Positions 9,837 to 31,275 of a stretch of DNA of 31,275 nt are shown in pieces. Where the stretch lies: the NCBI GenBank assembly GCA_964342815.1, contig CAYFHS010000033.1, positions 16,597 to 47,871 of the forward strand. The letters are read 5' to 3'. Positions within the stretch are counted from its first letter, which is position 1, and every line of letters begins with the position of its first letter. The position numbers and the translations under genes were made by a program. The DNA is from an uncultured archaeon (lineage in GTDB: Archaea; Thermoplasmatota; Penumbrarchaeia; JASLWR01). The notes below the pieces were generated by a model. It was not told the origin of the DNA. It was given only the letters and a program-made list of their open reading frames with translations, and made no database searches.

Positions 9837-10250
9837 TCAGGATATCGAATGATGTCCCTCCATCATTTTATTTGCTTCATGGATTTCATTGATTCTGATT
9901 CTTTTATCGTAAACAATGGCTTGAGCAAAGGCCACAGAATTGCTATGAGATAGACTAACCTGCATTACAAGATCATTTGTGTCATCTAAATTCACCTTTA
10001 CCATTGGAACACCGTTGGCATCGTTCAATATCTCGATATTTTCCACCCGCGCTTCTACTTTACGGTGTGACAGTGCCTTTACCATTGCTTCTTTTGCGCA
10101 AAACCTGGCAGCCAAATGCTTCTTTGGATCCGCTCTGCTGAAACAATATTCTATTTCATTTGGAGTGAAGATCCGCTCGAGGAACTTGCGATCATCAATT
10201 ATCTTTTGAAAACGCTCGATCTCCTCACAATCCACGCCTATGGAAATCAT
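9837..10250 (-). CDS. acpS: Holo-[acyl-carrier-protein] synthase (AcpS-type phosphopantetheinyl transferase)
   Basis: MISIGVDCEEIERF (GxD), RIFTPNEIEYC, HLAARFCAKEAMVKAL (FxxKEA), VQVSLSH-like 'MQVSLSHS'. Start moved to ATG 10250 by family length. Confidence 0.92.
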   Translation of the reverse strand: MISIGVDCEEIERFQKIIDDRKFLERIFTPNEIEYCFSRADPKKHLAARFCAKEAMVKALSHRKVEARVENIEILNDANGVPMVKVNLDDTNDLVMQVSLSHSNSVAFAQAIVYDKRIRINEIHEANKMMEGHHSIS

Positions 10251-10443
10251 CCAAACAACATCCGTTTGATAGTATCTCGCCGGTTTAAAAGAACCGAACA
10301 AAACTTATATTCTTTTTGGTCAAACATCGGGTAACGAATGACTTCGACAAATCAGAAATTATAAATATTGAGATACTATTCCAGCACGACGGTGAGCCGA
10401 TGCTAGCTAATCTCTTTGAAGAACAGAATCATGGAGATAATAA

Positions 10444-10911
10444 ATGAGATTTTTCTTGATCGATCGAGTCGAAGAAATTTGCTATGAAAAATACATCACA
10501 GCAATTAAATGCATAACCCTTTCCGATGACGTTTTCGAACATCATTTCCCACGGTACCCCGTATTTCCCGGAAGCCTGCTCATTGAAGGGTTGGCCCAAT
10601 TAAGCGGTATGTTTCTTGAATTGATTTTGAAGAAAAATCAACTTCCTCCCAAACTTTCGTTCCTCTCCATAGTGAATAAAATGAAATTCCGCAAACCCGT
10701 CCTGGCCGGTGATCGTGTTTTTATGAGGGCAGATATTGTTTCGCTGAGGGAGGATTACGGAGTCGTCAAGGTATTAGCCGAGATTGATGGCGAAGTTGTT
10801 GCCGAAGGGGAGCTTACATTCGCCTTTCTGAGCCTGGATGATGAGAAACTACATCAATCACGGATGGAATTTTATGAAATATGTATGAAAAATGCGAGAG
10901 AAGTTTCATGA
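10444..10911 (+). CDS. fabZ: FabZ/FabA-family 3-hydroxyacyl-ACP dehydratase (hotdog fold)
   Basis: 'FFLIDRV', 'HHFPRYPVFPGSLLIEGLAQ' (His/Glu dyad), 'KFRKPVLAGD'; GGAG SD upstream. Confidence 0.88.
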   Translation: MRFFLIDRVEEICYEKYITAIKCITLSDDVFEHHFPRYPVFPGSLLIEGLAQLSGMFLELILKKNQLPPKLSFLSIVNKMKFRKPVLAGDRVFMRADIVSLREDYGVVKVLAEIDGEVVAEGELTFAFLSLDDEKLHQSRMEFYEICMKNAREVS

Positions 10912-11498
10912 AAGTGACATTTGATTCTTACAAACCCGGCGAAGAAATTCCCGTGGTTCAATATCTCAAGAACAGAAAACTGAGAAAATATTTCAATCGC
11001 GAAACCGAGGCCGCCCTTGTCGGGCTTGGAAAGTTGACCCGGAAGATTGAACTAACTCCGGAAACACCGTTCTATTATGCAACCGGGGTGATGGAATATC
11101 AAGATTACGGCCTTGAGGAAATTGTCAAGAACAGTACCGATGGGACAGGTGATTTCTCTCACAAACTCTTTATTGAAGAAGCCATTCCAAGAGTATCACC
11201 GTTAAATTTATTCAAGGTACTGCAGAATATGGCATTGAGCTTTATCGCCATAGAACACAATCTTGTAGGGGATAATGCGGTCATTTATGCCTCTGCATCC
11301 GGTCTGCTACTTCTGGCTTTGCATTCTTTATCCAATAATCCAATGCTTCTGGGGGCCAGCAAAACCTATAAAGACGGAAAAGTCGAGGCCGGATTTGCAT
11401 ATGTAGTGAAGGAGGAAATTGAGAAATCTCCCTTTTTATACGGCACGGAGAAGGCAGTAGATATGTTTCGATCATGGGCAACAAACCGAGGGGATTGA
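10908..11498 (+). CDS. Truncated, catalytically dead ketosynthase-like protein (N-terminal KS half; chain-length-factor-like)
   Basis: ATGA overlap with the fabZ stop. 'SPLNLFKVLQNMALSFIAIEHNLVGDNAVIYASASG' resembles the KS 'P....M.N......I.....GPN....ACASG' with Cys replaced by Ser. The C-terminal His-His half is absent. Confidence 0.65.
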   Translation: MKVTFDSYKPGEEIPVVQYLKNRKLRKYFNRETEAALVGLGKLTRKIELTPETPFYYATGVMEYQDYGLEEIVKNSTDGTGDFSHKLFIEEAIPRVSPLNLFKVLQNMALSFIAIEHNLVGDNAVIYASASGLLLLALHSLSNNPMLLGASKTYKDGKVEAGFAYVVKEEIEKSPFLYGTEKAVDMFRSWATNRGD

Positions 11499-11500
11499 TC

Positions 11501-12706
11501 ATGGGCAGAGTGGTGATTACTGGAGTGGGAGCGGTATCCCCTATAGGAAATAACTTCGAAGAAGTAATGGAAGGGATTCGAAATGGGAAAAGGGGGATCG
11601 GGACAATTCAAAGTATTGACCCCTGTCATTTACCCGGCAATGTTGGTGCGGAAGTAAGGAAAAATGGAAAACCTCTCCTGACCGAATCTCATATTGACCG
11701 GAAAGAGATATTTATCACTCAGGCTCTAGATGAACTTATTAAAGGGTACGGAAGGATCCATCGGTACCCTCCGGAAAAGAGATTCATGCATATGGGCGCA
11801 GGGCACGATTATCTGGATCTGATCGGATATACCAATAATCACGATGAAGCCGCGGGTAATTGGATCAATTATTCAAAGAGCGGCCATATTATAGTGAAAG
11901 AGCTTTCCAAAGTTCATGAAATCAAGGGCGGATTCAGCGTCAATGTGACCACATGTGTCGCTGCCACCCAGGCCATGGGAACTTCTTTCAGGCTGCTGAA
12001 ACAGTTATCCGCAGGGAATATTATTATTACCGGTGGTTTTGATTCCGTAATCAATCATTTGCACTATATGGCTTTTTACAAACTCGGAGCCATGTCAAAC
12101 TGGAAGGGAGAGCCGGGTCATGCCTGTCGTCCTTTCGATAAAAATCGGTCCGGATTGGTTTTGGGGGAAGGAGCGGGAGTTTTTCTGCTGCAAGATGCCG
12201 AAGATATGGCTGCCGGGGAAGGTCTTGCGGAGATAGTGGGGTACAGCTCCACAATGGATGCTTACAAGGTAACGGACCCCCACCCTCAGGGAAAACATCT
12301 GGCCAGAGCTGCCGTAAATGCCATTGAAGAAGCAGGGTTGAGATCTGCCGATATTGATTGCGTGCACCTGCATGGGACCGGCACATATAAAAATGCCATT
12401 GCCGAAACGAATGCCATGCAACAGATATTTCCCGAGCGCTGGGCTGAAATCCCGGTGTTCTCCATGAAAGGACAGATCGGTCACCTAATTGGGGCATGCG
12501 GCGCCCTTGAAATGATTGGTGTGATATATTCATTAAAATATCAGCTGGTACCGCCCACCGTCAATTTCAGCGAACAGGCCCCCGAGGCCCCCCTGCTGGT
12601 CATTAAGGATAAACCTCTGGAAATGAAAATAGACCATATACTGAAATTAAATTCTGCCTTCGGAGGGCAAAACAGTGCGTTAGTGGTGAAAAGATATGTC
12701 GAATAG
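11501..12706 (+). CDS. fabF: Beta-ketoacyl-ACP synthase (FabF/FabB family)
   Basis: RVVITGVGAVSPIG; catalytic Cys in 'VTTCVAATQA'; 'CRPFDKNRSGLVLGEGAG'; His in 'HGTGT' and 'KGQIGHLIGACG'; 'NSAFGGQN'. Start set at ATG 11501, 2 nt after the upstream stop. Confidence 0.9.
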   Translation: MGRVVITGVGAVSPIGNNFEEVMEGIRNGKRGIGTIQSIDPCHLPGNVGAEVRKNGKPLLTESHIDRKEIFITQALDELIKGYGRIHRYPPEKRFMHMGAGHDYLDLIGYTNNHDEAAGNWINYSKSGHIIVKELSKVHEIKGGFSVNVTTCVAATQAMGTSFRLLKQLSAGNIIITGGFDSVINHLHYMAFYKLGAMSNWKGEPGHACRPFDKNRSGLVLGEGAGVFLLQDAEDMAAGEGLAEIVGYSSTMDAYKVTDPHPQGKHLARAAVNAIEEAGLRSADIDCVHLHGTGTYKNAIAETNAMQQIFPERWAEIPVFSMKGQIGHLIGACGALEMIGVIYSLKYQLVPPTVNFSEQAPEAPLLVIKDKPLEMKIDHILKLNSAFGGQNSALVVKRYVE

Positions 12707-13415
12707 AATCATAATTACCGGTGCCAGTTCAGATATTGGCCTGGCCATTTGCAAAGCGATCATAAAAAAGGGGGATCAGGCTGTTTTGCAGTACTACAAG
12801 AATAAAGAAAAATTAATTCCATTATGTGAGACGTTAGGGGATAGCTGTCAGATGATATCCGTAAATTTTAATGAGGGGCGCGAGCTTAGCAGGTTTTCAA
12901 AAAAACAAAACGATGTAGATATCCTGATCAATGCGGCGGCAGTTACCAAAACAGATCTCCTACCGGTCTTGAAAGATGAAGATATCATGCGCATGATCAA
13001 CGTCAATATTCTCTCCACCGTGAAAATGTGCCGAGCAGTGATACCAAGCATGGTGGCGAGGAGGAAGGGATGTATTGTCAATATTTCATCCGTGGCCGCT
13101 AAGAGAGGTATCAGAGGGCAAAACGTATATGCCGGAACGAAAGGATTCATCGAATCCTTCTGCCGGGCAATGGCTGCCGAATACGGCAGCAGAGGCATAC
13201 GTTTAAATAATGTCGCACCAGGGCCCATTGAGGCTGGAAGTTTAATGGAATTACTGGGTTACGGTAAAGATGAAGTTAAAAAAAGCATGGTTTCAAAAAG
13301 GCTTGGAACGCCTGAAGATGTGGCGGCAGCTGTGGCTTTTTTATGCAGTGACAAGGCCTCATACATAAATGGTAAAACCATCTCTGTGGATGGAGCATTT
13401 TGCAGGGGTGTTTAA
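12696..13415 (+). CDS. fabG: FabG-like SDR (3-oxoacyl-ACP reductase family), copy 1
   Basis: TGASSDIG (variant Gly motif), NISS, YAGTK (YxxxK), 'NNVAPGPI', 'RLGTPEDVA..V.FL.SD.ASYING..ISVDG'. Confidence 0.85.
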   Translation: MSNRIIITGASSDIGLAICKAIIKKGDQAVLQYYKNKEKLIPLCETLGDSCQMISVNFNEGRELSRFSKKQNDVDILINAAAVTKTDLLPVLKDEDIMRMINVNILSTVKMCRAVIPSMVARRKGCIVNISSVAAKRGIRGQNVYAGTKGFIESFCRAMAAEYGSRGIRLNNVAPGPIEAGSLMELLGYGKDEVKKSMVSKRLGTPEDVAAAVAFLCSDKASYINGKTISVDGAFCRGV

Positions 13416-13419
13416 CAAA

Positions 13420-13995
13420 ATGGCATCCAATTATGAGAATCTGAAAACTATTTGCCTGAGTAGAAGAAGTGTTAGAGAATTTGCCCAGAAAAATGTTTCC
13501 GCCGAAGACATTGAAAAGATAAAGACAATCGCTTACACCTCACCATATGCATCCAACCGAAAAAACTGGGAATTAGTTGTCGTAACAGATAATATGCAAA
13601 TCGGAAATATAGTAGATCTGGTGGGAAAAAGTATAAACGATCTTGGAATGAAGGTCAGAGAAGATTTGCGGGAAGGATTCTCACAATACGCAGCTCATTT
13701 CACCGAATTTGGAACGGCCCCTGCTTTGATCATTCCAACGTTCAGGATATCTCCGGGATTATCAGTAATGCTCAACGATCCGAAAGAGAATTTTGTCCGG
13801 TGGGAACGAGACAATTATGTAAAATCCATTTCCTGTGTGGCCATGCTGGTTCTTCTGGCGGTGGAAAGCCTGGGATTGGTCGGATGCTACATGACCGGTC
13901 CACTTCTTGCGGAGAAGGAAATCGGGGATATGATAAATATTAAAAAAGGTAGAAATATAGGAGCGATGATTCCCATAGGATATCGTCAATGGTGA
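13420..13995 (+). CDS. Nitroreductase-family FMN-binding oxidoreductase
   Basis: 'RRSVREF', 'PYASNRKNWELVVV', 'LLAVESLGLVGCYMTG', 'IPIGY'. Start set at ATG 13420, 4 nt after the fabG stop. Confidence 0.85.
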   Translation: MASNYENLKTICLSRRSVREFAQKNVSAEDIEKIKTIAYTSPYASNRKNWELVVVTDNMQIGNIVDLVGKSINDLGMKVREDLREGFSQYAAHFTEFGTAPALIIPTFRISPGLSVMLNDPKENFVRWERDNYVKSISCVAMLVLLAVESLGLVGCYMTGPLLAEKEIGDMINIKKGRNIGAMIPIGYRQW

Positions 13996-14044
13996 AAATC
14001 TCGATAATCCCCACGGGCTCATGGAGATTTGCAGCTTGACAATG

Positions 14045-14221
14045 TTCGCGGAATCGGGGCCTGCAGGTGCCTGAAGAACAAGTTCTTCTGCACCCTATTG
14101 GAATCTCTGATTCTATGTCGGGGAACTTTTTGTTCCAAAGGGCTCAGGAGTATCTTTGATGCCTCGGAATGTAAAGGGAACCCGAAGGGCCGATTCCGCT
14201 GAATACTTGGGAGGATCAAGA
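14045..14221 (+). promoter_or_regulatory. Structured intergenic element upstream of the ACP gene (candidate cis-regulatory RNA or MITE)
   Basis: Perfect 10-bp inverted repeat GCGGAATCGG (14048-57) / CCGATTCCGC (14190-99) enclosing hairpins at 14066-14094, 14101-14113, 14122-14136 and 14181-14189. Confidence 0.5.
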
Positions 14222-14222
14222 C

Positions 14223-14615
14223 ATGGATGTTGAAGATAAATTGAGGGAAATCCTGTTACCCGTTTTTGGACTGATTACTATCGATGAGATCAAACCGGAA
14301 CATTCATTTGTCAACGACCTGGAAGTGGACAGCCTTGATTTCATTGAGATCATGCACCTGATAGAAGTAAATTTTGGAGTGGTGATCACCCAGGACGAGA
14401 CCCTGATAGGAGGACTTAAAATCGACAAGGCCATGTTGTTCGAGGACGGTTTGTTAACCAGTGAAGGAGAGGGGCTGTTGAAAGAGAACTATCCCAAAAG
14501 AAAGGGCGACCTGAGATCGGGGATGACTAAAATCGACCTTTTTTCATTGATCACTGTCCAGGACCTTGCAAACATCATCAAAGAAAAGTTAAAGGCCAAA
14601 AAAGATAGTGAGTGA
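14223..14615 (+). CDS. acpP: Acyl carrier protein, extended type (130 aa)
   Basis: 'DLEVDSLDFIEIMHLIEVNFGV' with Ser37 in the DSL phosphopantetheine site; C-terminal 'ITVQDLANII'; ~50-aa insertion between them; GGGAGG SD. Confidence 0.9.
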   Translation: MDVEDKLREILLPVFGLITIDEIKPEHSFVNDLEVDSLDFIEIMHLIEVNFGVVITQDETLIGGLKIDKAMLFEDGLLTSEGEGLLKENYPKRKGDLRSGMTKIDLFSLITVQDLANIIKEKLKAKKDSE

Positions 14616-14638
14616 ACTGGCTGGTCACAGGAATTTTC

Positions 14639-15361
14639 ATGCTTAAAAACAAGATCGTATTTGTATCCGGCGGCTCCGGTTACCTGGGTTCTGCAATTTG
14701 TGAAAGGTGTGCCTATTATGGGGCAACGGTATATTTCTCATATTACAAAAATAAAGATCAAGCTGAAACAATGATGGAGCGGATCGAGGGATCGAAAGGA
14801 ATTAAGATCAACTTGAAGGACGTCCGGGATATTGAGGATAAGATAGAACAACTTCATAAAGAGATCGAAGGAGTGGATATCCTGGTGAATAACGCCGGAG
14901 TCAGTCAGATCATGCCGTTCCCCATGCTTGAAGAAGATGACGTGGATTTTATGATGGACTTGAATATCAAGGGTACGATTTTTCTTACTAAATCCATTAC
15001 CAGAAGAATGATAAAGCTCAAGCATGGTTCAATTGTCAATATTGGTTCAATTGCAGGACACCGCATGCTCGATGTGCCCGTACACTATGCTGTGACAAAG
15101 GCTGCAATGGCCGGGTTCACTTATTCTCTGGCCGCCCAGATGAAAAGGTATGGAATAAGAGTAAATTCCGTTGTCCCCGGTCTTCTGGAAGATGGGGTGT
15201 CGCGAGGAGTGCCAAAGGAGCTGCTGGAAGACTATCTGAACCACTGTTCTGTTGGCCGTCCGGGAACCGGTAAGGAAGTGGCTGAAGCGGTCTGTTTTCT
15301 GGCCTCAGACCGGGCGAGCTATATCAATGGACAGAATATCTTTGTTGATGGCGGTCTCTGA
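14639..15361 (+). CDS. fabG: FabG-like SDR (3-oxoacyl-ACP reductase family), copy 2
   Basis: SGGSGYLG, LVNNAG, NIGSIAG, YAVTK (YxxxK), 'RVNSVVPG', 'ASYINGQNIFVDGG'. Start could be GTG 14612 or ATG 14639. Confidence 0.85.
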   Translation: MLKNKIVFVSGGSGYLGSAICERCAYYGATVYFSYYKNKDQAETMMERIEGSKGIKINLKDVRDIEDKIEQLHKEIEGVDILVNNAGVSQIMPFPMLEEDDVDFMMDLNIKGTIFLTKSITRRMIKLKHGSIVNIGSIAGHRMLDVPVHYAVTKAAMAGFTYSLAAQMKRYGIRVNSVVPGLLEDGVSRGVPKELLEDYLNHCSVGRPGTGKEVAEAVCFLASDRASYINGQNIFVDGGL

Positions 15362-15376
15362 TAGAGGTTATTAATT

Positions 15377-16801
15377 ATGAAAACGGAAATCCTTCATTCT
15401 GAAACCAGGGCTTTGTGCCCTTCCTGCCGGGAGATTGTCAATGCTTCCATTATAGAAAAGGAGGGGCGGATCTACCTCAAGAAAATGTGCGAGGAGCACG
15501 GCGTTAGTTATGCTCTGACCTGTTCCGATCCCGAATGGTATCACGAGAGCACGAATTACGTGAAACCCGGCCAATCTCCCCTGGGCCTTAGTGTAAAGGA
15601 ATTCAAAGGCTGTCCAGATTCTTGCGGTCTTTGCCCGGAACATCAACAACATACATGCCTTCCAGTCATCGAAATAATGAGCGGCTGCGATATGGAGTGC
15701 CCAATATGTCTGAAAGATTTCGATAAATCCTTTCAAATGACGAAAACGGAGTTTAGAAATATCCTAAAACGGCTAAAAGCCTATGAACCGGACCTTAATG
15801 TAATTAATTTGAGCGGGGGCGAGCCGACCCTTCATCCTGAATTGGAAGAATTCCTGAAAATATCGGCAGAGGAAAACATCAACCAGGTAACTGTTTCCAC
15901 CAACGGGGTCAAATTATTAAACGACAAAAGGCTCAGGGAAGTTTTTAGGGAAACCGGTACCATTGCCTCTCTCCAGTTCGACGGTTTTCTTCCCCAAACC
16001 TATGAACGGTTGCGGGGTCGGGACCTTTATGATCAGAAAAAAAAGATCATTGCGGCCCTGGAAGAAGACAGCGTCAAATATTCTTTGGTTACCACTGTTG
16101 CCAAGAATATCAACGACCATGAGATAACGGATATTGTGGATTATTTTTTTCACTCCAAGGCTCTCAGTTTGATGTTCCAACCTGCAACTTTTACCGGTAG
16201 AGCCGCCGCCAATGACTTCGATCCCGATACGCTCCGCATCACGATCCCCGATATTGTCAGGGAGATCGAAAAAAACGAGAATGTCAAAAAGGGCGATTTC
16301 AATCCCATCCCCTGCTCTCACTATTCATGTTTTGCAGTATCATATTATTTAAAAGGTAAAGGTGACCCTGTTGGCTCCCCTAACTTGTCAGATGGTGACC
16401 TTACAAGCGATGATGAAAAGTATGTGAATATGAAGGACCTTTTGGGCCAAGACAACTTTATCAACATCCACACCAACCGCACATATCCGGGATTGGATGA
16501 AGAAGGATTTTCAATAATACAGGAGAGAATCTTTGGATTGTGGTCGGCGTCTGACTCCAGTGACGTCAATCAGAATGTTCTAAAGAGAATTCGCAGTATC
16601 TTTAACCAGCTCAATCGTGACTGTTTTTCTTCAAAAGAGGTTTTCGAAGAGGGGTCCAAATCCATGAAGAGCATATTCATTCACCAGCTCATGGATGTCC
16701 ACACTCTCGATATTGCCCGCCTGAAAAAATGCTGCAACCATTATGCTCTGGGAGACGGCCGCATAATACCAATGTGCGCCCAGAATGTTTTTTTCCAGTA
16801 A
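15377..16801 (+). CDS. Radical SAM protein of the tetraether lipid synthase (Tes/GDGT-MAS, MJ0619-like) family
   Basis: N-terminal CPSC...CEEHG; auxiliary GCPDSCGLCPEH; CDMECPIC radical SAM motif; GGEPTLH; TNG; LQFDG; FQPATFTGR; RITIPD; C-terminal 'HQLMD...D..RLKKCCNHY...GRIIPMC..N'. All match the Tes architecture as recalled. The family call is firmer than the function. Confidence 0.8.
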   Translation: MKTEILHSETRALCPSCREIVNASIIEKEGRIYLKKMCEEHGVSYALTCSDPEWYHESTNYVKPGQSPLGLSVKEFKGCPDSCGLCPEHQQHTCLPVIEIMSGCDMECPICLKDFDKSFQMTKTEFRNILKRLKAYEPDLNVINLSGGEPTLHPELEEFLKISAEENINQVTVSTNGVKLLNDKRLREVFRETGTIASLQFDGFLPQTYERLRGRDLYDQKKKIIAALEEDSVKYSLVTTVAKNINDHEITDIVDYFFHSKALSLMFQPATFTGRAAANDFDPDTLRITIPDIVREIEKNENVKKGDFNPIPCSHYSCFAVSYYLKGKGDPVGSPNLSDGDLTSDDEKYVNMKDLLGQDNFINIHTNRTYPGLDEEGFSIIQERIFGLWSASDSSDVNQNVLKRIRSIFNQLNRDCFSSKEVFEEGSKSMKSIFIHQLMDVHTLDIARLKKCCNHYALGDGRIIPMCAQNVFFQ

Positions 16802-20879: not shown

Positions 20880-20929
20880 TGATATCTTGATAATTACGTT
20901 GGTAAATTTCATAATATCGCCGAGATGGA

Positions 20930-21172
20930 CTATTGTACAACGGGATTCAATGGCATCACCCCGTTATGTCTTACCTTTTTCGCCCCGTACTCCCGGAGTA
21001 TTCCCTCTCTGTCATCAGGTCTTATTCTCAGTACTATCCCGCAATCGGAACTGATGTGCCGGGGAGTTGGTATGCATCTAACTGAAAATCCGGCTTTCCT
21101 TGCCACCTGTTCACCTCGAATGGCGAGGCTCGTGGAATCGAAAATAATGACAAAATAGTCGGTGTCATCCAT
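20930..21172 (-). CDS. DUF3343-family small protein (putative S/Se carrier)
   Basis: 'IIFDSTSLAIRGEQ......F.VRCIPTPRHISSDCGIVLRI' matches the F.S...A......IP.PR.IS..CG pattern; directly follows the desulfurase. Confidence 0.8.
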   Translation of the reverse strand: MDDTDYFVIIFDSTSLAIRGEQVARKAGFSVRCIPTPRHISSDCGIVLRIRPDDREGILREYGAKKVRHNGVMPLNPVVQ

Positions 21173-22342
21173 CTATCCCACCAGTTCCTCCAGCGCTTCC
21201 ACCGCAAAATCGATTTCTTCCGCTCGGTTGAAATATCCAAATCCAAATCGTACCGTTCCATGGGGAAAGGTCCCAATGGTCCTGTGAGCTGCTGGTGCGC
21301 AGTGAAGGCCCACCCTGCACAATATATTAAATTGCTCCTCGAGTAAAAGACCTATCTCGGATTGAGAACTATCTCGTATGTTTATGGAGACGACGGACGT
21401 CTGCTTTTTCACGTCCTTTCCACCGTACACATCAATGCCGTGTATGTGTTTGATCCCATCTATGAACCTGGCCGTCAGATCCATTTTCTTCTGATGGATA
21501 TTATCCACCGTTCGATCAAGAATGTAACCCAGCCCTGCCGTCAAACCGGCCAGACCCAATGCGTTCATGGTACCGCTCTCGTACTTGTCCGGAAGGAAAT
21601 CCGGATGATGCTCGGACTCGGATCGGCTCCCGCTTCCACCGGATCTCGCCCGGTTGAAACTTGCGATGTCAACATTTTCACCTATGGCGAGACCCCCGGT
21701 TCCCTGCGGACCCATGAGCCCTTTATGACCGGTGAATGCCACGAGATCGATATTGTCACGCTTCATATCGATTGGGATGCTCCCGGCAGTCTGGGCACTG
21801 TCGATCAAATATTTTATATTACTGTCCCTTGCCAAGTTCCCAATTTCTCGTAGCGGGGCCAGGCTTCCCACCACGTTGGAGCCGTGATTGACCACTATCA
21901 TCTTCGTTTCCGACGTGATGGCATTCCGGACGTCATCCGGATCGAGAAAACCTTCACTGCTGCACTTAACCACTGTTACCCGAAGCCCCTGATTCTCGAG
22001 ATCACGAAGCGGTCTCATGACCGAATTGTGCTCCATGCTGCTGGTGATGACGTGATCTTTCCGGTTAAGTAAACCCCTCATTGCCAGATTGAGTCCTTCT
22101 GTTGCATTGAGACCAAAAACAACCCTCATGGGGTCCTCAAGGTTGAAAAGTCGTGCAATATTTTCCCTGGCGAAATAAACGACTCTGCCCGCTTCCACGG
22201 AAAGGCGGTGGCCCGAGCGGCCGGGATTGGCGCCTATATTCTTCATGAAATCCAACATCGCCTCCGCAACGCAATCCGGTTTCGGCCAGGATGTAGCTGC
22301 ATTGTCGAAATAGATTATTTTCGGTCTATTTGTATCGGGCAT
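21173..22342 (-). CDS. Cysteine desulfurase / selenocysteine-lyase-like PLP enzyme (aminotransferase class V)
   Basis: 'IYFDNAATSWPKP', 'NATEGLN', 'EHNSVMRP', 'DSAQTAG', 'FTGHKGLMGPQG' (PLP Lys), 'RVGLHCAP' (persulfide Cys). Confidence 0.92.
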   Translation of the reverse strand: MPDTNRPKIIYFDNAATSWPKPDCVAEAMLDFMKNIGANPGRSGHRLSVEAGRVVYFARENIARLFNLEDPMRVVFGLNATEGLNLAMRGLLNRKDHVITSSMEHNSVMRPLRDLENQGLRVTVVKCSSEGFLDPDDVRNAITSETKMIVVNHGSNVVGSLAPLREIGNLARDSNIKYLIDSAQTAGSIPIDMKRDNIDLVAFTGHKGLMGPQGTGGLAIGENVDIASFNRARSGGSGSRSESEHHPDFLPDKYESGTMNALGLAGLTAGLGYILDRTVDNIHQKKMDLTARFIDGIKHIHGIDVYGGKDVKKQTSVVSINIRDSSQSEIGLLLEEQFNILCRVGLHCAPAAHRTIGTFPHGTVRFGFGYFNRAEEIDFAVEALEELVG

Positions 22343-22377
22343 TCGGTTATCTCCGTGGTGTCCATCTAATAAATGGT

Positions 22378-22965
22378 TTAAAACCGCACCACCTTGCCGG
22401 CTCCCAGCAGGATTTCGGCAATGGTGTAGGCATTGGATATCTCCCCGACGGCAAGCCTATCTTTGAGATCGAAAAAGTCCAGACAGGTCCCGCATACAAG
22501 TATTTCAACTCCTCCGTCCCGGAGCTTTTCAAGGTCCTCCAATGATTCTGAACCATCCACAGCCAATTTTACACCGCTGTTCATGAAAATGAACACATCC
22601 GGCTTTGGTTCGACCTCCAAAATGGAATATATGAGGGACTTCGCGAGGATGCTCCCCAGCTCGTCTTCACCTCTTCCCACGGTGTTCGAAGGGAAAAATA
22701 CCACCGTGGGGCTGGCTTTTTTCCCAAGGTCGGGCCTCGATCTTTCTTCGGATCCCTCTATCTTGCTGATTTGTAGATAATGATCCTTCCCTTTTGTGCG
22801 GACATTGACCTTGTATCCCCTCTTGATTGCTCCGCGCGATATGTTCTGTATTGCGTCATCATCGTCGACTATAACGAGCAGCTCGTCTGCGTTGCGCAGC
22901 GCTCTTCCGGTACGTATCGCAGGTTCGGGGCATTTAAGTCCCCTGAGATCCAATTCTTCAGCCAT
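22378..22965 (-). CDS. yedF: YedF-type sulfurtransferase-like protein (TusA/SirA domain plus DsrE-like domain)
   Basis: 'LDLRGLKCPEP' (TusA CPxP), 'GRGEDELGSILAKS', 'FMNSGVKLA', 'CGTCLDFF', 'GEISNAYTI'. ATG 22965 has a GGAG SD. Confidence 0.85.
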   Translation of the reverse strand: MAEELDLRGLKCPEPAIRTGRALRNADELLVIVDDDDAIQNISRGAIKRGYKVNVRTKGKDHYLQISKIEGSEERSRPDLGKKASPTVVFFPSNTVGRGEDELGSILAKSLIYSILEVEPKPDVFIFMNSGVKLAVDGSESLEDLEKLRDGGVEILVCGTCLDFFDLKDRLAVGEISNAYTIAEILLGAGKVVRF

Positions 22966-22986
22966 TATAATTGCTCCGGTGCTCAA

Positions 22987-24465
22987 CTACTTGTTTGTAA
23001 GAACGAGAAAGTATTCGCCCCCGTCCCTTGGCTCTATTTTCGAGGTCCACCCTTCGCTTTCAGCCGTTTTTTCGATGTTATCCCTTGCTTCTTTCTCGTT
23101 CACCAGTATCTCGAGAACTCCCCCTTCCATTTCCCACATCTTCTCCTGGGTCTGCCATACTGGTTCAGGGCATTGCAGACCCCGTAGATCCAGTTTTTCT
23201 CTTCGGAATTTCTTTGGATTATCATCTTCATATACAGGTTGGGGCATTCCAAGCTTTTTGAAGAATTCGGGCATCCTCCTGTTCTTAATCTTTTTCGTAA
23301 TTTCCATGGAGGTCTCTTTACAAAGCGGGAATTTCCCTTCCTGATCGAAGCCTTTTTTGAACTGTGCGTGTGCGGCTCTTACAAAACACTCGTGCCGGGG
23401 AACACAGTACCTCCCGGCCATGGCCTGGTAAGCAGCTGCGAATCCTTCCTCTTTTACGTTACCGAACGATAGAGGTATCATGTCGCAGGGAGTGACCGTT
23501 CCATCATTTTCGATGAATATGTGATAGGTTCCCGCCATACAGCCCAGCATCCCCTCGCTTTCCAGGTAGGAGTATTCGCTGATCTTGGGAAAATCCTTGT
23601 CCCTGTTGAGTTTCTTATGGTATTTCCACATCTTCTTTTCCTCGTCTGTTCCGCACCATCTTGCCTCGCGGTTACCCACCAGCTTTCCGGTGGGGATGGG
23701 CGCAAGGACCCTCACTTCGTGGACCCCGATATCCTTCAAAAAGCGGTAATAAATCGGAACCTCGCCGCCGTTGATCATCTCCTTTGTGGGAACTGCTCCT
23801 GCGATGGTATAAAGGCCCGCTTCATTGGATGCCTCGATAGCTTTCACTGCGATGTCGAATGCGCCTTCGTATCCCCGCAATTTATCGTGGATCTCCGCCT
23901 TGTAATGATCGAGGCTTATGGAAGCGGCGAACAAACCCCTCTTCTTCAGCTCTCTCGCGCGCTCGAAACCCAGTTTCTCGCCATTGGTGAACAGAATGGT
24001 ATGGGATTTTGTTCCTATGGCTTCCACGATATCTTCAAGGTCGTCTCTAAGCGTGGGCTCCCCGCCGGTGAGACCAATGAAGCAGTTACCCATGTCCTGC
24101 AGCTGCCGGATAGTGCTTATAAGAAGGTCCAGTGGAAAGTCTTCACTTTCCTCACGGCCCCAGTTGCTGCAGTGCCAGCAGGAAAAATTGCACCTGTTCG
24201 TGACGCTGATGTTGCAGGAGAACGGGAAGGTTTCACCCTTCTTCATACGTGGGATGAATCTTAGAAATCGGTCGAATGCCTCGGAGCCGAACGGCGGCAT
24301 CTGGGAATTCATCACCACCTTCCCGTCGATCTCCACGAACTTCTCGTATTTCGAAGAACTGCGCAAATACATGAGAAATCGTTTATCGAGGGCCCGGATC
24401 TCCTTTTTCCTGAGCATTTTGAGCATCATCAGGTCCTTTGCCCTGCCGATAAGAAATTTCACCAA
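22987..24465 (-). CDS. Radical SAM protein with SPASM/Twitch domain fused to a C-terminal TusA-like sulfur-carrier domain
   Basis: CNFSCWHC; GGEPTLRDD; FTNG; 'GCMAG...I..DG.VTPCD' SPASM/Twitch; C-terminal 'KLDLRGLQCPEPV....GVLEILVN...ARDNI...AESEGW'. TTG start after a GGGGGA SD. Confidence 0.88.
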   Translation of the reverse strand: MVKFLIGRAKDLMMLKMLRKKEIRALDKRFLMYLRSSSKYEKFVEIDGKVVMNSQMPPFGSEAFDRFLRFIPRMKKGETFPFSCNISVTNRCNFSCWHCSNWGREESEDFPLDLLISTIRQLQDMGNCFIGLTGGEPTLRDDLEDIVEAIGTKSHTILFTNGEKLGFERARELKKRGLFAASISLDHYKAEIHDKLRGYEGAFDIAVKAIEASNEAGLYTIAGAVPTKEMINGGEVPIYYRFLKDIGVHEVRVLAPIPTGKLVGNREARWCGTDEEKKMWKYHKKLNRDKDFPKISEYSYLESEGMLGCMAGTYHIFIENDGTVTPCDMIPLSFGNVKEEGFAAAYQAMAGRYCVPRHECFVRAAHAQFKKGFDQEGKFPLCKETSMEITKKIKNRRMPEFFKKLGMPQPVYEDDNPKKFRREKLDLRGLQCPEPVWQTQEKMWEMEGGVLEILVNEKEARDNIEKTAESEGWTSKIEPRDGGEYFLVLTNK

Positions 24466-24677
24466 TATTATTCCCCCGCGGATGAACGCTTGAGTTCAGA
24501 TAAGGTAGGCGGAATAAATAATTTCCTCTCTCTTTTTCGTTCTGCCGGTTCCGTGGTTTGGTTATTTCAAATTTTCCCGTGGGGATAGGTCTCGGTAACC
24601 CGAAAAAAAAGGTTGTTATTACGACTTTATGAAATAATGCCGAACTATTTATATATTGTTTCGCTCTTATTTCACCC

Positions 24678-25529
24678 ATGTTCCTCGAAAAAATAAATAA
24701 AACGGAACTCAGGATACTTGAATTGATCCTAGGCCAGGTGCTACCGGAAAAAGAGATAGCAAAGGAGTTGAAACAATCTGCGTCCTGGATATCAGAATGC
24801 ATTCATCATTTAATCGATATAGGCTTCGTAGACCTGGAAAAAAAGGGGATCTCAAGGTTTGCCCGGATAAGCAACAACAGCGTTGGAACAAGTCTGAGGC
24901 TTTTGATGGAAGAGAATAAAATGCTAAATTATTATATGATTTTTCCAAATTCCGGGCTGATCATCTTGCCTCTTTTACTTAGGCCAGGTACAAAAATAAA
25001 CGAAATTTGTCTGAGAACCCATCTATCGAAGAGAGCAATTTATTACAAGATGAAAGAATGGAAAAGCATTGGATTGATCGATCTGAAAAAGTACCCGGAA
25101 AAAGTTATTCTATCCAATAACAAAACCTATTTATCGAAATTTCTGATCGAATACTGTAAAAATCGCAATCGAAGATTCTTGAATGAAACATATCCAAAAG
25201 GGAATATCGTATGGGAATGGAAAGATGAATTTCTTTTTTCAACAAAGGAAAAAATAGATAATGAATATTTCCTGCAAGCAGGTAGTACGAGATTAGAAGA
25301 GTTTGACATCGAACTATTGCACACTTCCCAATATTATTATTTCCGTATCGGAAAGGAATCGGTATCATTGGAAGAATCGCTGGTACAAACGATCAGGACT
25401 GACCCAATGAACCCAAGGCCAATAAGAATTACCCGGGAGGCGATCAAGGATAGGGCATTAAACTGTGATGTTTTGTTCGATTTCGCGAAAAAATATGGTG
25501 TTTATAAAATTTTAAAAACGAGGCTATGA
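24678..25529 (+). CDS. Tandem winged-helix DNA-binding protein; putative AbiEi-like antitoxin/regulator
   Basis: Two HTH-like blocks ('EKEIAKELKQSASWISECIHHLIDIGFV', 'INEICLRTHLSKRAIYYKMKEWKSIGLI'); stop is 1 nt from the downstream NTase start; TTTATATA box at ~24649. Confidence 0.7.
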   Translation: MFLEKINKTELRILELILGQVLPEKEIAKELKQSASWISECIHHLIDIGFVDLEKKGISRFARISNNSVGTSLRLLMEENKMLNYYMIFPNSGLIILPLLLRPGTKINEICLRTHLSKRAIYYKMKEWKSIGLIDLKKYPEKVILSNNKTYLSKFLIEYCKNRNRRFLNETYPKGNIVWEWKDEFLFSTKEKIDNEYFLQAGSTRLEEFDIELLHTSQYYYFRIGKESVSLEESLVQTIRTDPMNPRPIRITREAIKDRALNCDVLFDFAKKYGVYKILKTRL

Positions 25530-25530
25530 T

Positions 25531-26346
25531 ATGACCGGAAGGAAAGTGTATTCAGAGGATTACCTTAAACGTGAACTAGATAACATTTCATCATCGTTCC
25601 GAGATCAAGTAACCGGCTATCTCATTGGTGGATTGGCAATGATCTACCACGGTGTAAAGAATGCTACGAAAGATGTCGATATCGTTTTTGAAAATGAATT
25701 CGAAGCAATGACTTTCAAAGAAAACCTCCTAAGAAACGGATTCAAAACGGTCAATATAGTAACGAATGAATATGAGAAAATGAAAACGTTTTCCATCGTC
25801 GAAAAATCAGGGACATTTCGTTTTGATATATTTATTCGATGTGTTTGTGATAGCCTTATATTATCCAAAGGAATGATCAAAAGGGCAACGAAGGTTCCAT
25901 TATCCGGGAATTTCAACTTATTTGTTATTTCATTGGAGGACATTTTCCTTTTCAAGAGCATTACAAATCGAAACGATGATCTGAGAGACATGTCGATTAT
26001 TGCCAGTGTGGGTCTGGACTGGGAAATGATTGACAATGAATTACGAGGTCAGCCAGAGCAATGGAGATGGTATACAATCTTTTTTCAAAATATGTTGGCA
26101 TTGGAAGAGGAATATTCCATATTATCTCCACTAAAAAGCCGATTCGAAAAAGAGGCGGAGATTTCCGTGGCAATGGATGTGATCATATTAAAGCTGGAAA
26201 GCAAACCCCATACATATGATGAATTGATTGGTATTCTCGGGACGGATGATGAAACCTTTTTCAGGGATGTAATTAACCGTTTAAAGGAAAAGAATATCAT
26301 ATTCATGAAGAATGGTCATTATTTTCTTGTAGAATCCATCAGGTAG
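25531..26346 (+). CDS. Pol-beta-superfamily nucleotidyltransferase (AbiEii/MenT/DUF6036-like) with C-terminal wHTH; putative toxin
   Basis: 'YLIGGLAM..HG....TKDVDIV' (GG...TxDxD), 'RFDIF', 'LEDIFLFKSITNRNDDLRD' (K..R..D..D). Confidence 0.75.
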   Translation: MTGRKVYSEDYLKRELDNISSSFRDQVTGYLIGGLAMIYHGVKNATKDVDIVFENEFEAMTFKENLLRNGFKTVNIVTNEYEKMKTFSIVEKSGTFRFDIFIRCVCDSLILSKGMIKRATKVPLSGNFNLFVISLEDIFLFKSITNRNDDLRDMSIIASVGLDWEMIDNELRGQPEQWRWYTIFFQNMLALEEEYSILSPLKSRFEKEAEISVAMDVIILKLESKPHTYDELIGILGTDDETFFRDVINRLKEKNIIFMKNGHYFLVESIR

Positions 26347-26477
26347 AGATACATCCCTGCTTAGTGTCAATCCCAACAGTGATCCCGCCGGGGGCCTGAT
26401 TGTAAAGCAATATTGCTAGAAGGTCAAGGGGGCGGTACGGCAATACTCAGAAAAGCATGAAAGCGGCAATGCTTAAA

Positions 26478-27719
26478 TCATTCATTTATCGATTTTGACC
26501 GTTTTCGGTATCCCCAAGCGATCCCCCCCATCAAAAAGCATACTCCGGCCACAGCTCCAATGATTAGATAAGGAAATGCCCGGGGTGGAAAACCTTTAGG
26601 AGAATTTGCAATGATATCGGCGTCAATATAACTTGTCTCATTCGTGATATGAACCCAACCAACGACACACATTTTATCTCCTGACCAATAATCCCTATCG
26701 TAATTATGGTATCCCATGTATATTGTATCTTTTTCTTCAACAATTATTTGAATTGAATCGGTATTGTCTGTCAAATTAAAATCCTTTATTTTCCACTCGG
26801 TTTTTTTACTTCCGGGATTGGCTACTATCAGAACTTCTTTATCTAAAGAACTTACAGTCCCAAATATCTTTACATAAGTACCGTTTTCAATTTTTTCGAT
26901 TTTTGTTGTTTTCATATAATATGCATCATATTCATTTTTCTCTGTCATCACATAGGCGATCCCCGATACAAGAATAACACCAAATAAAAGAATTATTCCA
27001 AATGTTGTTATTTTGTTCAGATATGCGTATTTGCGGCTTTTTTCACTTTTATCGACTGAATTTGAACCGATATCCAGATGAGGGGATAGTGCTTTTTCAA
27101 GATTATGGAAAGGATTGGGTACTTTTCCCGGAGACGTTATAGATTTACTGCTTTTGTAGACCTTATCCCATTTGATACCCAGCATTTGTTTCAAAGCGGG
27201 AATTACTTTTTCTTCTCGATCATAAATAAAATAAATATTTAATCCGTAATTCACTCTGTTTTTGAAGAGTTTCTTCGTTATCTTGAGTCCTTTATTAAAT
27301 TTCGAAAGTGTAAATGGATATATCGCTAGAATTTGATCTGAAAAGGTGAAATTGAGAAACCCACGTTTTATTCCATTATCATAGATTTTCAAGCGTCTTT
27401 TTATGTTTATTACATAAAGAAATGGACTGGAAAAGGCAGATAATAGAAAAATCCAGAGAAAAATCTCTGCCGGATATACGAAATATAGAAGGAAAGAAAT
27501 GATTGAAATAATGCCAAGTGCAGGCACGAAATATTTTATGGCAATCATATCCGTTTTGTATAATAATTTTCCTTTTCTGCCAAAACTGCTTCTGTAAGGA
27601 GTAATAATACTGTGGAGATCATTCCCATATTTTTCCCGTAACTTTTTTGTTTGATATCGACCTTGAAAATAAAATAATATTTTTACAATAAGAAGGGCTC
27701 CAATAAAACCTCCTGCCAA
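26478..27719 (-). CDS. AT-rich membrane protein with extracytoplasmic OB-fold-like domain, function unknown
   Basis: Several TM segments; 'GTYVKIFGTV...DFNLTDNTDSIQI...GDKMCVVGWV' is OB-like. The frame extends to ATA at 27755 behind a GGGGGT SD. Confidence 0.7.
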   Translation of the reverse strand: MAGGFIGALLIVKILFYFQGRYQTKKLREKYGNDLHSIITPYRSSFGRKGKLLYKTDMIAIKYFVPALGIISIISFLLYFVYPAEIFLWIFLLSAFSSPFLYVINIKRRLKIYDNGIKRGFLNFTFSDQILAIYPFTLSKFNKGLKITKKLFKNRVNYGLNIYFIYDREEKVIPALKQMLGIKWDKVYKSSKSITSPGKVPNPFHNLEKALSPHLDIGSNSVDKSEKSRKYAYLNKITTFGIILLFGVILVSGIAYVMTEKNEYDAYYMKTTKIEKIENGTYVKIFGTVSSLDKEVLIVANPGSKKTEWKIKDFNLTDNTDSIQIIVEEKDTIYMGYHNYDRDYWSGDKMCVVGWVHITNETSYIDADIIANSPKGFPPRAFPYLIIGAVAGVCFLMGGIAWGYRKRSKSINE

Positions 27720-27995
27720 AAGTAGAATGACTAATAATGTTGGGCCAATATCTATTTATATACCCCCATACAAATTAACGTTCCAATCCTATTTATGTGT
27801 TGTAGTTTTGATTCTACGGTTGATATTAAGGATTATGTGAAGGGGGATTACCAATAAGATTTTTTCCAATTATCATTACTCAGAGAGATTGGATCCAATC
27901 TGTTACCAACACCTAAGTATCAAATCAAAAAGTCCCAGCAACAAAAGAAACGATTTAAGTAATGTAGTCATTCACCCCGAAACGAGGAAACGTCC

Positions 27996-30663: not shown

Positions 30664-30790
30664 ATGGTGGACAGCGAACCGAGGTTCCCATGAGCGCGAG
30701 CATCACAGTACCACAAGGAACGCGGACAGGCTTAACTTCTGGGTTCGGGATGTTACCAGGTGAGCCCTATCGCTCTGGCCGTCCTACCAT
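30664..30790 (-). rRNA. rrf: 5S ribosomal RNA (archaeal type)
   Basis: Sense: UGGUAGGACGGCCAGAGCG...CAUCCCGAACCCAGAAGUUAAGC...GUACUG...GGGAACC.CGGUUCGCUGUCCACCA; terminal stem closes. Ends approximate. Confidence 0.93.
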
Positions 30791-30839
30791 TCTAATGTGA
30801 AAGTTATCATACGCAATCTGTCAAACGGTTGAGTCGATA

Positions 30840-31275
30840 ATATGCAGCTGAGATGATTAGTAATTGCGAGCTGAATATCTCGGTCCTAGTCAACATTTTA
30901 CGGTTCCGGCTTTGGGCCGAAGCCCTCCGCTTTTCCCGCAAAAGAGGTTGGTAGGAATAATCCTCGATACTTACACACCAATCCTATTAACCCAGTCTTT
31001 TACTGGAATCTCAATGGCGCTTCTTTTCAGGGCGGGTTTCAGGCTTAGATGCTTTCAGCCTTTATCCCTTACAGCGTGGCTGCCCAGCGATGCCTTGCCA
31101 GACAACTGGTAGACTAGCGGCTGCGAGCCCTTGTTCCTCTCGTACTAAAGGGTCCTTCCCCTCAAGCGCCGAACACTTCTAGCGGGGAGCAACAAACCTG
31201 TCTCACGACGGTCTAAACCCATCTCACGATCCCTTTTAATGGGCGAACAACCCCACCCTTGGCAGCTGCTGCACT
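30840..31275 (-). rRNA. rrl: 23S ribosomal RNA, 3' part (continues beyond the window)
   Basis: Sense contains GGGUUUAGACCGUCGUGAGACAGG, the sarcin-ricin loop UAGUACGAGAGGAAC, GCUGAAAGCAUCUAAG, GUGUAAG...UUCAGC...ACUAAU. 3' end approximate. Confidence 0.96.

Follow-up and report, generated by a model that had tools for sequence, protein, structure and literature searches.

A radical SAM enzyme fused to a TusA-type carrier heads a putative sulfur-relay cassette in a marine Thermoplasmatota archaeon

The 31,275-nt stretch of DNA analyzed here (the window, from contig CAYFHS010000033.1) is part of a 4.35-Mb archaeal genome, 89% complete, that is labeled G000 below. Its minus strand includes, at nucleotides 20930-24465, four co-oriented and tightly spaced open reading frames (ORFs) that encode, in this order, a radical S-adenosylmethionine (SAM) enzyme fused to a TusA domain, a YedF protein, an EF2568-type cysteine desulfurase and a DUF3343 protein, with gaps of 0-21, 35 and 0 nt separating the four genes. 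This organization had been described in an earlier note on the same DNA, made from the letters alone, and was borne out by ORF, Pfam and NCBIfam analyses. The host is not a bacterium: archaeal 23S and 5S rRNA sequences are found at 30666-31275 of the window, and the organism is a marine Thermoplasmatota archaeon whose relatives carry the names Thermoplasmata or Thermoplasmatota. As far as sequence comparisons can tell, the four-gene cassette is an undescribed variant of radical SAM chemistry fed by a sulfur relay.

The TTG start of the fusion gene (Table 1) is favored over the ATG used in a 479-amino-acid database copy because the first 13 residues are kept among relatives, with G7 and K10 invariant. 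Pfam locates Radical_SAM at residues 86-219 (77 bits, cut-off 29.5), SPASM at residues 309-348 (31.5 bits, covering only positions 1-45 of the 67 of the profile) and TusA at residues 424-488 (52 bits, cut-off 28.6), and the protein belongs to the radical SAM superfamily. A scan of NCBIfam gave no family at cut-off, the top model being AhbD with 100 bits against the required 500, and the ESM Atlas returned only generic "radical SAM" names. Over 82 relatives six cysteines and no others are invariant, namely the radical SAM triad and C309, C327 and C360. What is missing is the C-x2-C-x5-C-x3-C block of a full SPASM domain, and with it the seven-cysteine SPASM signature. On its motif content the SPASM part is a twitch-like half with three conserved cysteines, enough for one auxiliary cluster, and the term "SPASM radical SAM" applied to it earlier is to be narrowed to this half domain.

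An AlphaFold2 model of the fusion (predicted local distance difference test, pLDDT, 94; predicted template modeling score, pTM, 0.88) matches many radical SAM structures at Z>20. Among solved structures SkfB, itself a twitch enzyme, comes closest in fold (Z 25.2, 295 residues aligned, 23% identity), in agreement with the invariance of the twitch motif. The C-terminal domain superposes on SirA/TusA proteins with a root-mean-square deviation (rmsd) of 0.9-2.3 Å, its matches including SirA-like 3hz7 (Z 13.5, rmsd 0.9 Å over 71 residues), YeeD in 8j4c (Z 12.2) and E. coli TusA in the IscS-TusA complex 3lvj (Z 10.4). Both its sequence and its modeled fold assign this domain to the TusA/SirA family, and the cysteine of its CPxP motif, which occurs as CPEP or CPQP, is invariant in 27 of 27 fused representatives. 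One further cysteine, C271, lies in the radical SAM core within an RWCG loop and is found in all 27 fused proteins and in none of 55 unfused relatives. The N-terminal domain has an invariant K42 and a nearly invariant P57 among the 82 relatives; when folded alone (pLDDT 84) it found no clear fold match by Foldseek (E>2) or VIA (top Z 4.0). A complex prediction of the fusion with YedF gave an ipSAE of 0.00 and a mark of 0.32, values that are not evidence either way.

The three genes that follow the fusion encode recognizable sulfur-handling proteins. The CPEP and C-G-T-C motifs of YedF are invariant in 52 relatives, and its translation probably starts at the ATG at 22965, for a protein of 195 amino acids. 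The desulfurase includes the lysine (TGHK) that binds pyridoxal 5'-phosphate (PLP) and the catalytic cysteine (GLHCAP), both conserved among relay desulfurases, and it belongs to a set of about five Aminotran_5 paralogues encoded by the host. The DUF3343 gene starts where the desulfurase gene stops, the cysteine of its SSDCG motif is conserved, and it adjoins the desulfurase gene in 5 of 5 other carrier genomes checked. The parts list of the earlier note, consisting of two CPxP TusA carriers, a DsrE-like CxxC domain, a PLP desulfurase and a small cysteine protein, is confirmed by these assignments.

Table 1. Features of the radical SAM-TusA cassette and its surroundings (window coordinates)
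Feature	Coordinates	Strand	Basis
Variable slot: cassette and low-GC block between conserved flanks	20880..27926	.	Comparison with G010
DUF3343 / Se_S_carrier small protein, SSDCG Cys	20930..21172	-	PF11823, 69 bits
EF2568-type PLP cysteine desulfurase	21173..22342	-	Aminotran_5; TIGR01977, 483 bits, cut-off 377
YedF (TusA with CPEP and DsrE-like with C-G-T-C)	22378..22986	-	TIGR03527, 186 bits, cut-off 110
Radical SAM / twitch / TusA fusion, 492 aa, TTG start	22987..24465	-	Pfam Radical_SAM, partial SPASM, TusA
C-terminal TusA domain of the fusion, residues 422-492, C432-P-E-P	22990..23202	-	Pfam TusA, 52 bits
Twitch-like auxiliary cluster motif, C309-x12-G322-x4-C327...C360	23371..23553	-	Three Cys invariant in 82/82
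Radical SAM core, C92-x3-C96-x2-C99	23566..24210	-	C92, C96, C99 invariant in 82/82
Family-specific N-terminal domain, residues 1-82	24220..24465	-	Conserved in 82/82 relatives
Upstream intergenic region with AT-rich TATA-like stretches; presumed archaeal promoter	24466..24677	-	Sequence reading

The combination Radical_SAM+SPASM+TusA was found in 27 cluster representatives (clusters at 90% identity) that share 59-86% identity. In a tree of 92 family members the 27 fused proteins form one clade, with a Shimodaira-Hasegawa-like approximate likelihood ratio test (SH-aLRT) support of 100, nested in an 11-member Thermoplasmatota clade. Among 1.84 billion representatives at the level of 50% identity, a single full-length cluster takes in the fused form, and the fused clade is therefore narrow. 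A region-restricted homologue search with the TusA part returned three close copies only. The junction between core and TusA domain is spanned, with no differences, by contigs from three other sequencing runs. The possibility raised earlier that the fusion is a one-off with a degenerate SPASM domain is thus set aside by the 27 representatives in one clade and by the invariance of the auxiliary-cluster cysteines. The earlier remark that the fusion resembles no characterized enzyme agrees with the literature, in which a search on radical SAM enzymes with TusA, on TusA domains and on DUF3343 gave no description of such a fusion; recent papers on radical SAM enzymes of archaeal lipids deal with B12-dependent enzymes of another family.

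The two nearest unfused sisters have, where TusA sits in the fusion, acidic C-terminal tails with repeated GGCMGS motifs. Such tails, with two or three GGCMGS-like repeats, end the unfused sister proteins encoded at L060 4914-6371 and L061 7037-8509, and the L060 gene has as neighbors a conserved polytopic membrane protein and a TehB-like methyltransferase. The orthologue in genome G006 includes one in-frame TGA (L021 2215-2217). Selenocysteine at this codon was considered and rejected, as it aligns with leucine and not with cysteine; the TGA probably marks a pseudogene or a sequencing error.

The association between the relay genes and the radical SAM gene goes beyond the host. A comparison of neighborhoods, suggested earlier as a check, showed the desulfurase gene to be the next or next-but-one gene downstream of the fusion in all 8 fused loci with context, with DUF3343 and either YedF or YeeE/TusA alongside. 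Two layouts are found: radical SAM-TusA, YedF, desulfurase, DUF3343, and YeeE, (TusA), radical SAM-TusA, desulfurase, DUF3343. Since the arrangement recurs in eight independent loci it goes beyond chance. One of the unfused sisters with GGCMGS tails, that of genome G050, lies 2 kb from a YeeE-TusA-desulfurase-DUF3343 group. Phyletic profiles were taken from a sample of 401 genomes of the phylum, three of which (G000, G008 and G046) carry the fusion. Full-length YedF occurs in exactly these three, on a separate contig in the case of G046. TIGR01977 scores above its cut-off only in G000, G046, G039, G050 and G060, the G008 copy being truncated, and these genomes are the holders of the radical SAM clade with the exception of G060, which is 73% complete and whose relay contig ends beside the genes. 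We have also observed, in 18 genomes of family f21 in this sample, a stand-alone DsrE-like protein of about 115 amino acids that corresponds to the C-terminal half of YedF alone (97-120 bits on the YedF model; e.g. G216:C25:7323-7664).

Among bacterial relatives the desulfurase or YedF is found near the radical SAM gene about as often as expected by chance (3-4 of about 75 loci), and only one of these loci was counted, a tight operon of a Eubacteriaceae genome (L111 1925-5824) that consists of a TIGR01977 desulfurase gene (511 bits), two class I methyltransferase genes and the orthologous radical SAM gene. For bacteria, a methylthio (or methylseleno) product may be suspected from this operon. 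Taken together, the genomic case for a dedicated relay, as built from gene content and order, is strong. The earlier note had proposed a dedicated chain that delivers sulfur or selenium from cysteine or selenocysteine directly to a radical SAM active site. The pairing of a cysteine-derived relay with the radical SAM enzyme stands, given the fusion, the desulfurase downstream in 8 of 8 loci and the co-occurrence across the 401 genomes; the transfer of persulfide to the CPEP cysteines, the formation of a C-S bond and the nature of the substrate are predictions.

The radical SAM core, together with its own N-terminal domain, defines a family of 529 representatives at E<=1e-30, with at least 458 relatives among species-representative genomes. 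It is spread over Desulfobacterales, Clostridia (including cultured species), Omnitrophota, the Planctomycetes-Verrucomicrobia-Chlamydiae (PVC) group, Bathyarchaeia, Asgard archaea and others. Neighbor clustering identified a class I SAM methyltransferase as the commonest neighbor, in 36 of 94 loci, and a second methyltransferase is often present in Clostridia. Other neighbors depend on the lineage: an SRPBCC lipid-binding protein in Desulfobacterales; a UbiA-type prenyltransferase, a polyprenyl synthase and a further radical SAM gene in Omnitrophota; and a conserved polytopic membrane protein, a polyprenyl synthase and a CruF-like hydratase in archaea. In 8 of 10 long relatives (P0266, P0272, P0300, P0307, P0314, P0325, P0337 and P0347) a methyltransferase domain is fused to the core, six times at the C terminus, in the position of TusA, and twice at the N terminus. 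From these partners the family looks like a radical C-H-activating core with a group-transfer partner, which would serve methyl in most lineages and sulfur in the one described here. As substrates, hydrophobic small molecules are more probable than peptides, and the neighbors of the relatives hint at a lipid-like or prenylated substrate.

Two tandem copies of the radical SAM gene were observed in genomes of family f21 (L043 5893-11287 and L045 7102-12506). These loci also include an AhbD-like radical SAM/SPASM gene, a CruF-like carotenoid hydratase homologue and a 229-amino-acid membrane protein with DQLID and GKxDHP motifs that has no Pfam family. The tandem-copy locus may be an isoprenoid-modifying cluster.

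A three-cysteine auxiliary cluster leaves one iron free for an exogenous ligand, as in MiaB/RimO, MoaA and the sactisynthases. We consider the chances about even that the cassette encodes an enzyme that forms a C-S bond by radical chemistry and receives its sulfur from the persulfide carrier tethered to it. The EF2568-type desulfurase would draw sulfur from cysteine as a persulfide, DUF3343, YedF or both would hand it on, and it would land on Cys432 of the tethered TusA domain. From there the sulfur could move to the open iron of the three-cysteine twitch cluster, possibly via Cys271. A 5'-deoxyadenosyl radical would then abstract hydrogen from an unactivated carbon of the substrate, and the resulting substrate radical would capture the cluster-bound sulfur to form the C-S bond. 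What the data show directly are the domains, the motifs, the fusion, the gene order and the co-occurrence. Across the family the product may be a thiol that is often S-methylated, because a class I methyltransferase takes the position of TusA or adjoins the gene in most relatives.

Several observations weigh against this proposal. The co-occurrence counts are small and come from partly related genomes, G000 and G008 belonging to one family. The cassette includes no substrate gene, and every step of the scheme is deduced from sequence. Enzymes without any sulfur insertion can also have a three-cysteine twitch cluster; in MoaA, for example, the free iron binds the substrate. Most of the 529 representatives have no sulfur-relay neighbor, methyltransferases being their usual partners, and for this reason the core chemistry may not involve sulfur at all. 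Lastly, most of what is known about YedF, the EF2568-type desulfurase and DUF3343 relates to selenium in bacteria (PMC5322559).

This last point bears on a relay of selenium from selenocysteine, in which a C-Se bond would be formed independently of SelD, without selenophosphate. In bacteria the genes for YedF, EF2568-type lyases and DUF3343 cluster with selD and with genes for selenium-dependent Mo hydroxylases (PMC5322559), and the cassette desulfurase scores 374 bits on the model of the selenocysteine lyase SclA (NF040779). That score is below the cut-off of 525, and a source of free selenocysteine is not evident. The earlier note had seen no selD in the window, and the genome searches extend this observation, since selD stays below its 125-bit cut-off in the host (56 bits) and in five other carrier genomes (63-91 bits), the genomes searched being 82-93% complete. 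No match to YqeB was found, and no tRNA-Sec was found in the host, in whose 89% complete genome 33 tRNAs were detected; a SelD-dependent selenium-utilization module is accordingly not recognized here. DUF3343 and rare copies of YedF are also known in organisms that lack SelD, and YedF was reported to be absent from archaea in 2015 (PMC5322559). The selenium half of the earlier proposal is then very improbable, and because selD was not found in six carrier genomes sulfur is the more economical choice of cargo. If it were true, the selenium reading would add a further biological route for this element, in archaea without selenophosphate synthetase. More plausible, if still unlikely, is that the relay supplies or rebuilds the auxiliary Fe-S cluster of the enzyme itself, a cluster that would either be spent as the source of the sulfur or need dedicated assembly. 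The fusion, the adjacency and the co-occurrence apply equally to this explanation, and other desulfurase paralogues are at hand for housekeeping, so that the one in the cassette would be dedicated. LipA and BioB consume their auxiliary cluster at every turnover, after which it is restored by carrier proteins. The cassette, however, includes no iron protein or scaffold of the IscU, SufB or Nfu type; TusA, DsrE and DUF3343 are carriers of persulfide and not cluster scaffolds, and more than 500 relatives do without such a relay.

The radical step might also proceed without sulfur, as a desaturation, a C-C coupling or a support of methylation on a lipid-like substrate, with the relay serving regulation, redox sensing or the maturation of another target such as a Mo/W cofactor. 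The partners of the wider family (class I methyltransferases, SRPBCC proteins, UbiA-type prenyltransferases and polyprenyl synthases) are in line with such a role, but it leaves aside the invariant CPxP cysteine, the appearance of Cys271 together with the fusion, and the strict co-occurrence with the desulfurase and YedF, and we hold it to be rather unlikely. Its Mo-cofactor variant could call on the five Mo hydroxylase large subunits (PF02738) encoded in the host on contigs C7, C9, C14, C15 and C19. Such subunits are likewise encoded in G008 and in the congeneric genome G010, which has five of them and no cassette; no YqeB or SelD was found to go with them. In the carriers G046, G039 and G050 the subunits themselves were not found. 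A role in the maturation of Mo hydroxylases, listed in the earlier note among the targets to check, does not fit this distribution and was rejected. In another possibility the cysteine module would be the substrate, the enzyme modifying its own Cys432, or the GGCMGS tails of the sisters, for example by a sactionine/ranthionine-type thioether or a formylglycine-type oxidation, reactions known from SPASM/twitch enzymes that act on peptides and proteins. The closest folds include the thioether-forming SkfB, CteB and SuiB, and anSME; the archaeal SPASM enzyme CrpC installs thioethers on a cysteine-rich protein (PMC13692751), a precedent for such a modification in archaea; and the acidic tails of the sisters do carry repeated cysteine motifs. 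Yet a stoichiometric self-modification would leave the desulfurase, two further carriers and the strict co-occurrence unexplained, and the methyltransferase found at the same position in relatives is a catalytic partner rather than a substrate. In addition, no fold like that of a RiPP precursor peptide recognition element (RRE) was recognized in the N-terminal domain by searches in which weak matches can be missed. We regard modification of the cysteine module as improbable.

The cassette is an accessory element, because the congeneric genome G010 lacks it at the same site. There the permease and acyl-CoA-synthetase-like genes on the flanks share 80-87% identity with those of the host, and the slot between them is occupied by 3.4 kb of helix-turn-helix (HTH)/DUF6036 genes (L138 6760-10167, G010:C77) instead of the 7 kb found in the host. 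The G+C content is 0.50 in the operon, 0.454 in the genome and 0.34-0.37 in the adjacent block (24678-27719), which encodes an HTH-like protein of 283 amino acids, a DUF6036 nucleotidyltransferase and a membrane protein of 413 amino acids. Nearly identical operons are found in marine and seawater metagenomes from at least 6 studies, and none of the listed runs that hold the operon is an RNA run. Elsewhere in the window a fatty-acid-synthase-like cluster (9837-16801) encodes a phosphopantetheinyl transferase, a FabA/Z-type dehydratase, a ketosynthase, two ketoreductases, a nitroreductase-family protein, an acyl carrier protein (ACP) and a radical SAM enzyme with an HMPTM-type zinc ribbon. It is unusual for an archaeal cluster to depend on ACP. 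Two very large surface-type proteins are encoded at 24-3668 (1214 amino acids, with seven PKD domains) and 5551-9231 (1226 amino acids, with fn3 and disaggregatase-like repeats), and GC and AT skew is strong in the repeats at 2-4 kb.

The source of the sulfur inserted by radical SAM enzymes is a long-running question, the candidates being a sacrificed cluster, external sulfide or a persulfide. A fusion that comes with its own desulfurase and carriers would be a natural test case, in which a label could be traced from cysteine via Cys432 to the product. It is also a first functional handle on a large radical SAM family of anaerobic bacteria and archaea that is usually paired with methyltransferases. 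The presence of the YedF/EF2568/DUF3343 module in archaea in which selD was not detected calls for caution in inferring selenium use from this module.

The cassette can be compared with several known systems. With the relay formed by IscS, TusA and TusBCD/DsrEFH it has in common a PLP desulfurase, CPxP carriers of the TusA fold and a DsrE-fold domain; it differs in its end acceptor, which would be a radical SAM enzyme in place of a tRNA thiouridylase or DsrC, in its desulfurase, of the EF2568 type instead of IscS, and in the addition of DUF3343. It resembles the selD-linked module of bacteria, which lies in neighborhoods of selenium-dependent Mo hydroxylases and of selenoproteins (PMC5322559), in the tight clustering of YedF, an EF2568-type lyase and DUF3343, all above curated cut-offs here, but it is archaeal, selD and YqeB were not found in the genomes searched, and the radical SAM-TusA protein stands where the downstream consumer would be. 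The methyltransferase-linked members of the family (from Clostridia, Desulfobacterales, Omnitrophota, the PVC group and other archaea) share a core of 34-42% identity, the N-terminal domain and the six invariant cysteines. They differ in having no TusA and, with rare exceptions, no relay genes; none is characterized and they serve as context only.

As for radical SAM enzymes, SkfB is the best match in structure and in sequence (phmmer E 2e-16), and both proteins have C-x(9-15)-G-x4-C plus one further cysteine. Unlike SkfB and the other twitch/SPASM peptide maturases, the fusion and its relatives have as partners sulfur carriers or methyltransferases and not peptides; no conserved precursor peptide ORF was found beside the fusion gene, and the NCBIfam maturase models score far below their cut-offs. 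In the scheme proposed here a second Fe-S cluster with a free iron would present sulfur to a carbon radical, as for MiaB/RimO, BioB and LipA, and the methylation link seen in relatives parallels methylthiolation by MiaB/RimO. In the fold ranking of the model these enzymes come far behind SkfB at Z 25.2, with BioB at Z 14.9, LipA at Z 12.8 and weak matches to MiaB at Z 9.8 and RimO at Z 9.6 (rmsd 6.5-6.9 for the latter two). Searches of Pfam and NCBIfam found neither of the UPF0004 and TRAM domains that mark MiaB/RimO, and the signatures of BioB and LipA are absent as well. A further difference from all of these enzymes is that the carrier is covalently fused here, and that methylation is assigned to separate class I methyltransferases; to our knowledge none of them has a tethered persulfide carrier. 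In MiaB/RimO exogenous sulfur binds the free iron of the second cluster, and in sactisynthases a thiolate binds the twitch/SPASM cluster. By analogy these two groups would be the nearest mechanistic precedents of the fusion, which appears to be a member of neither.

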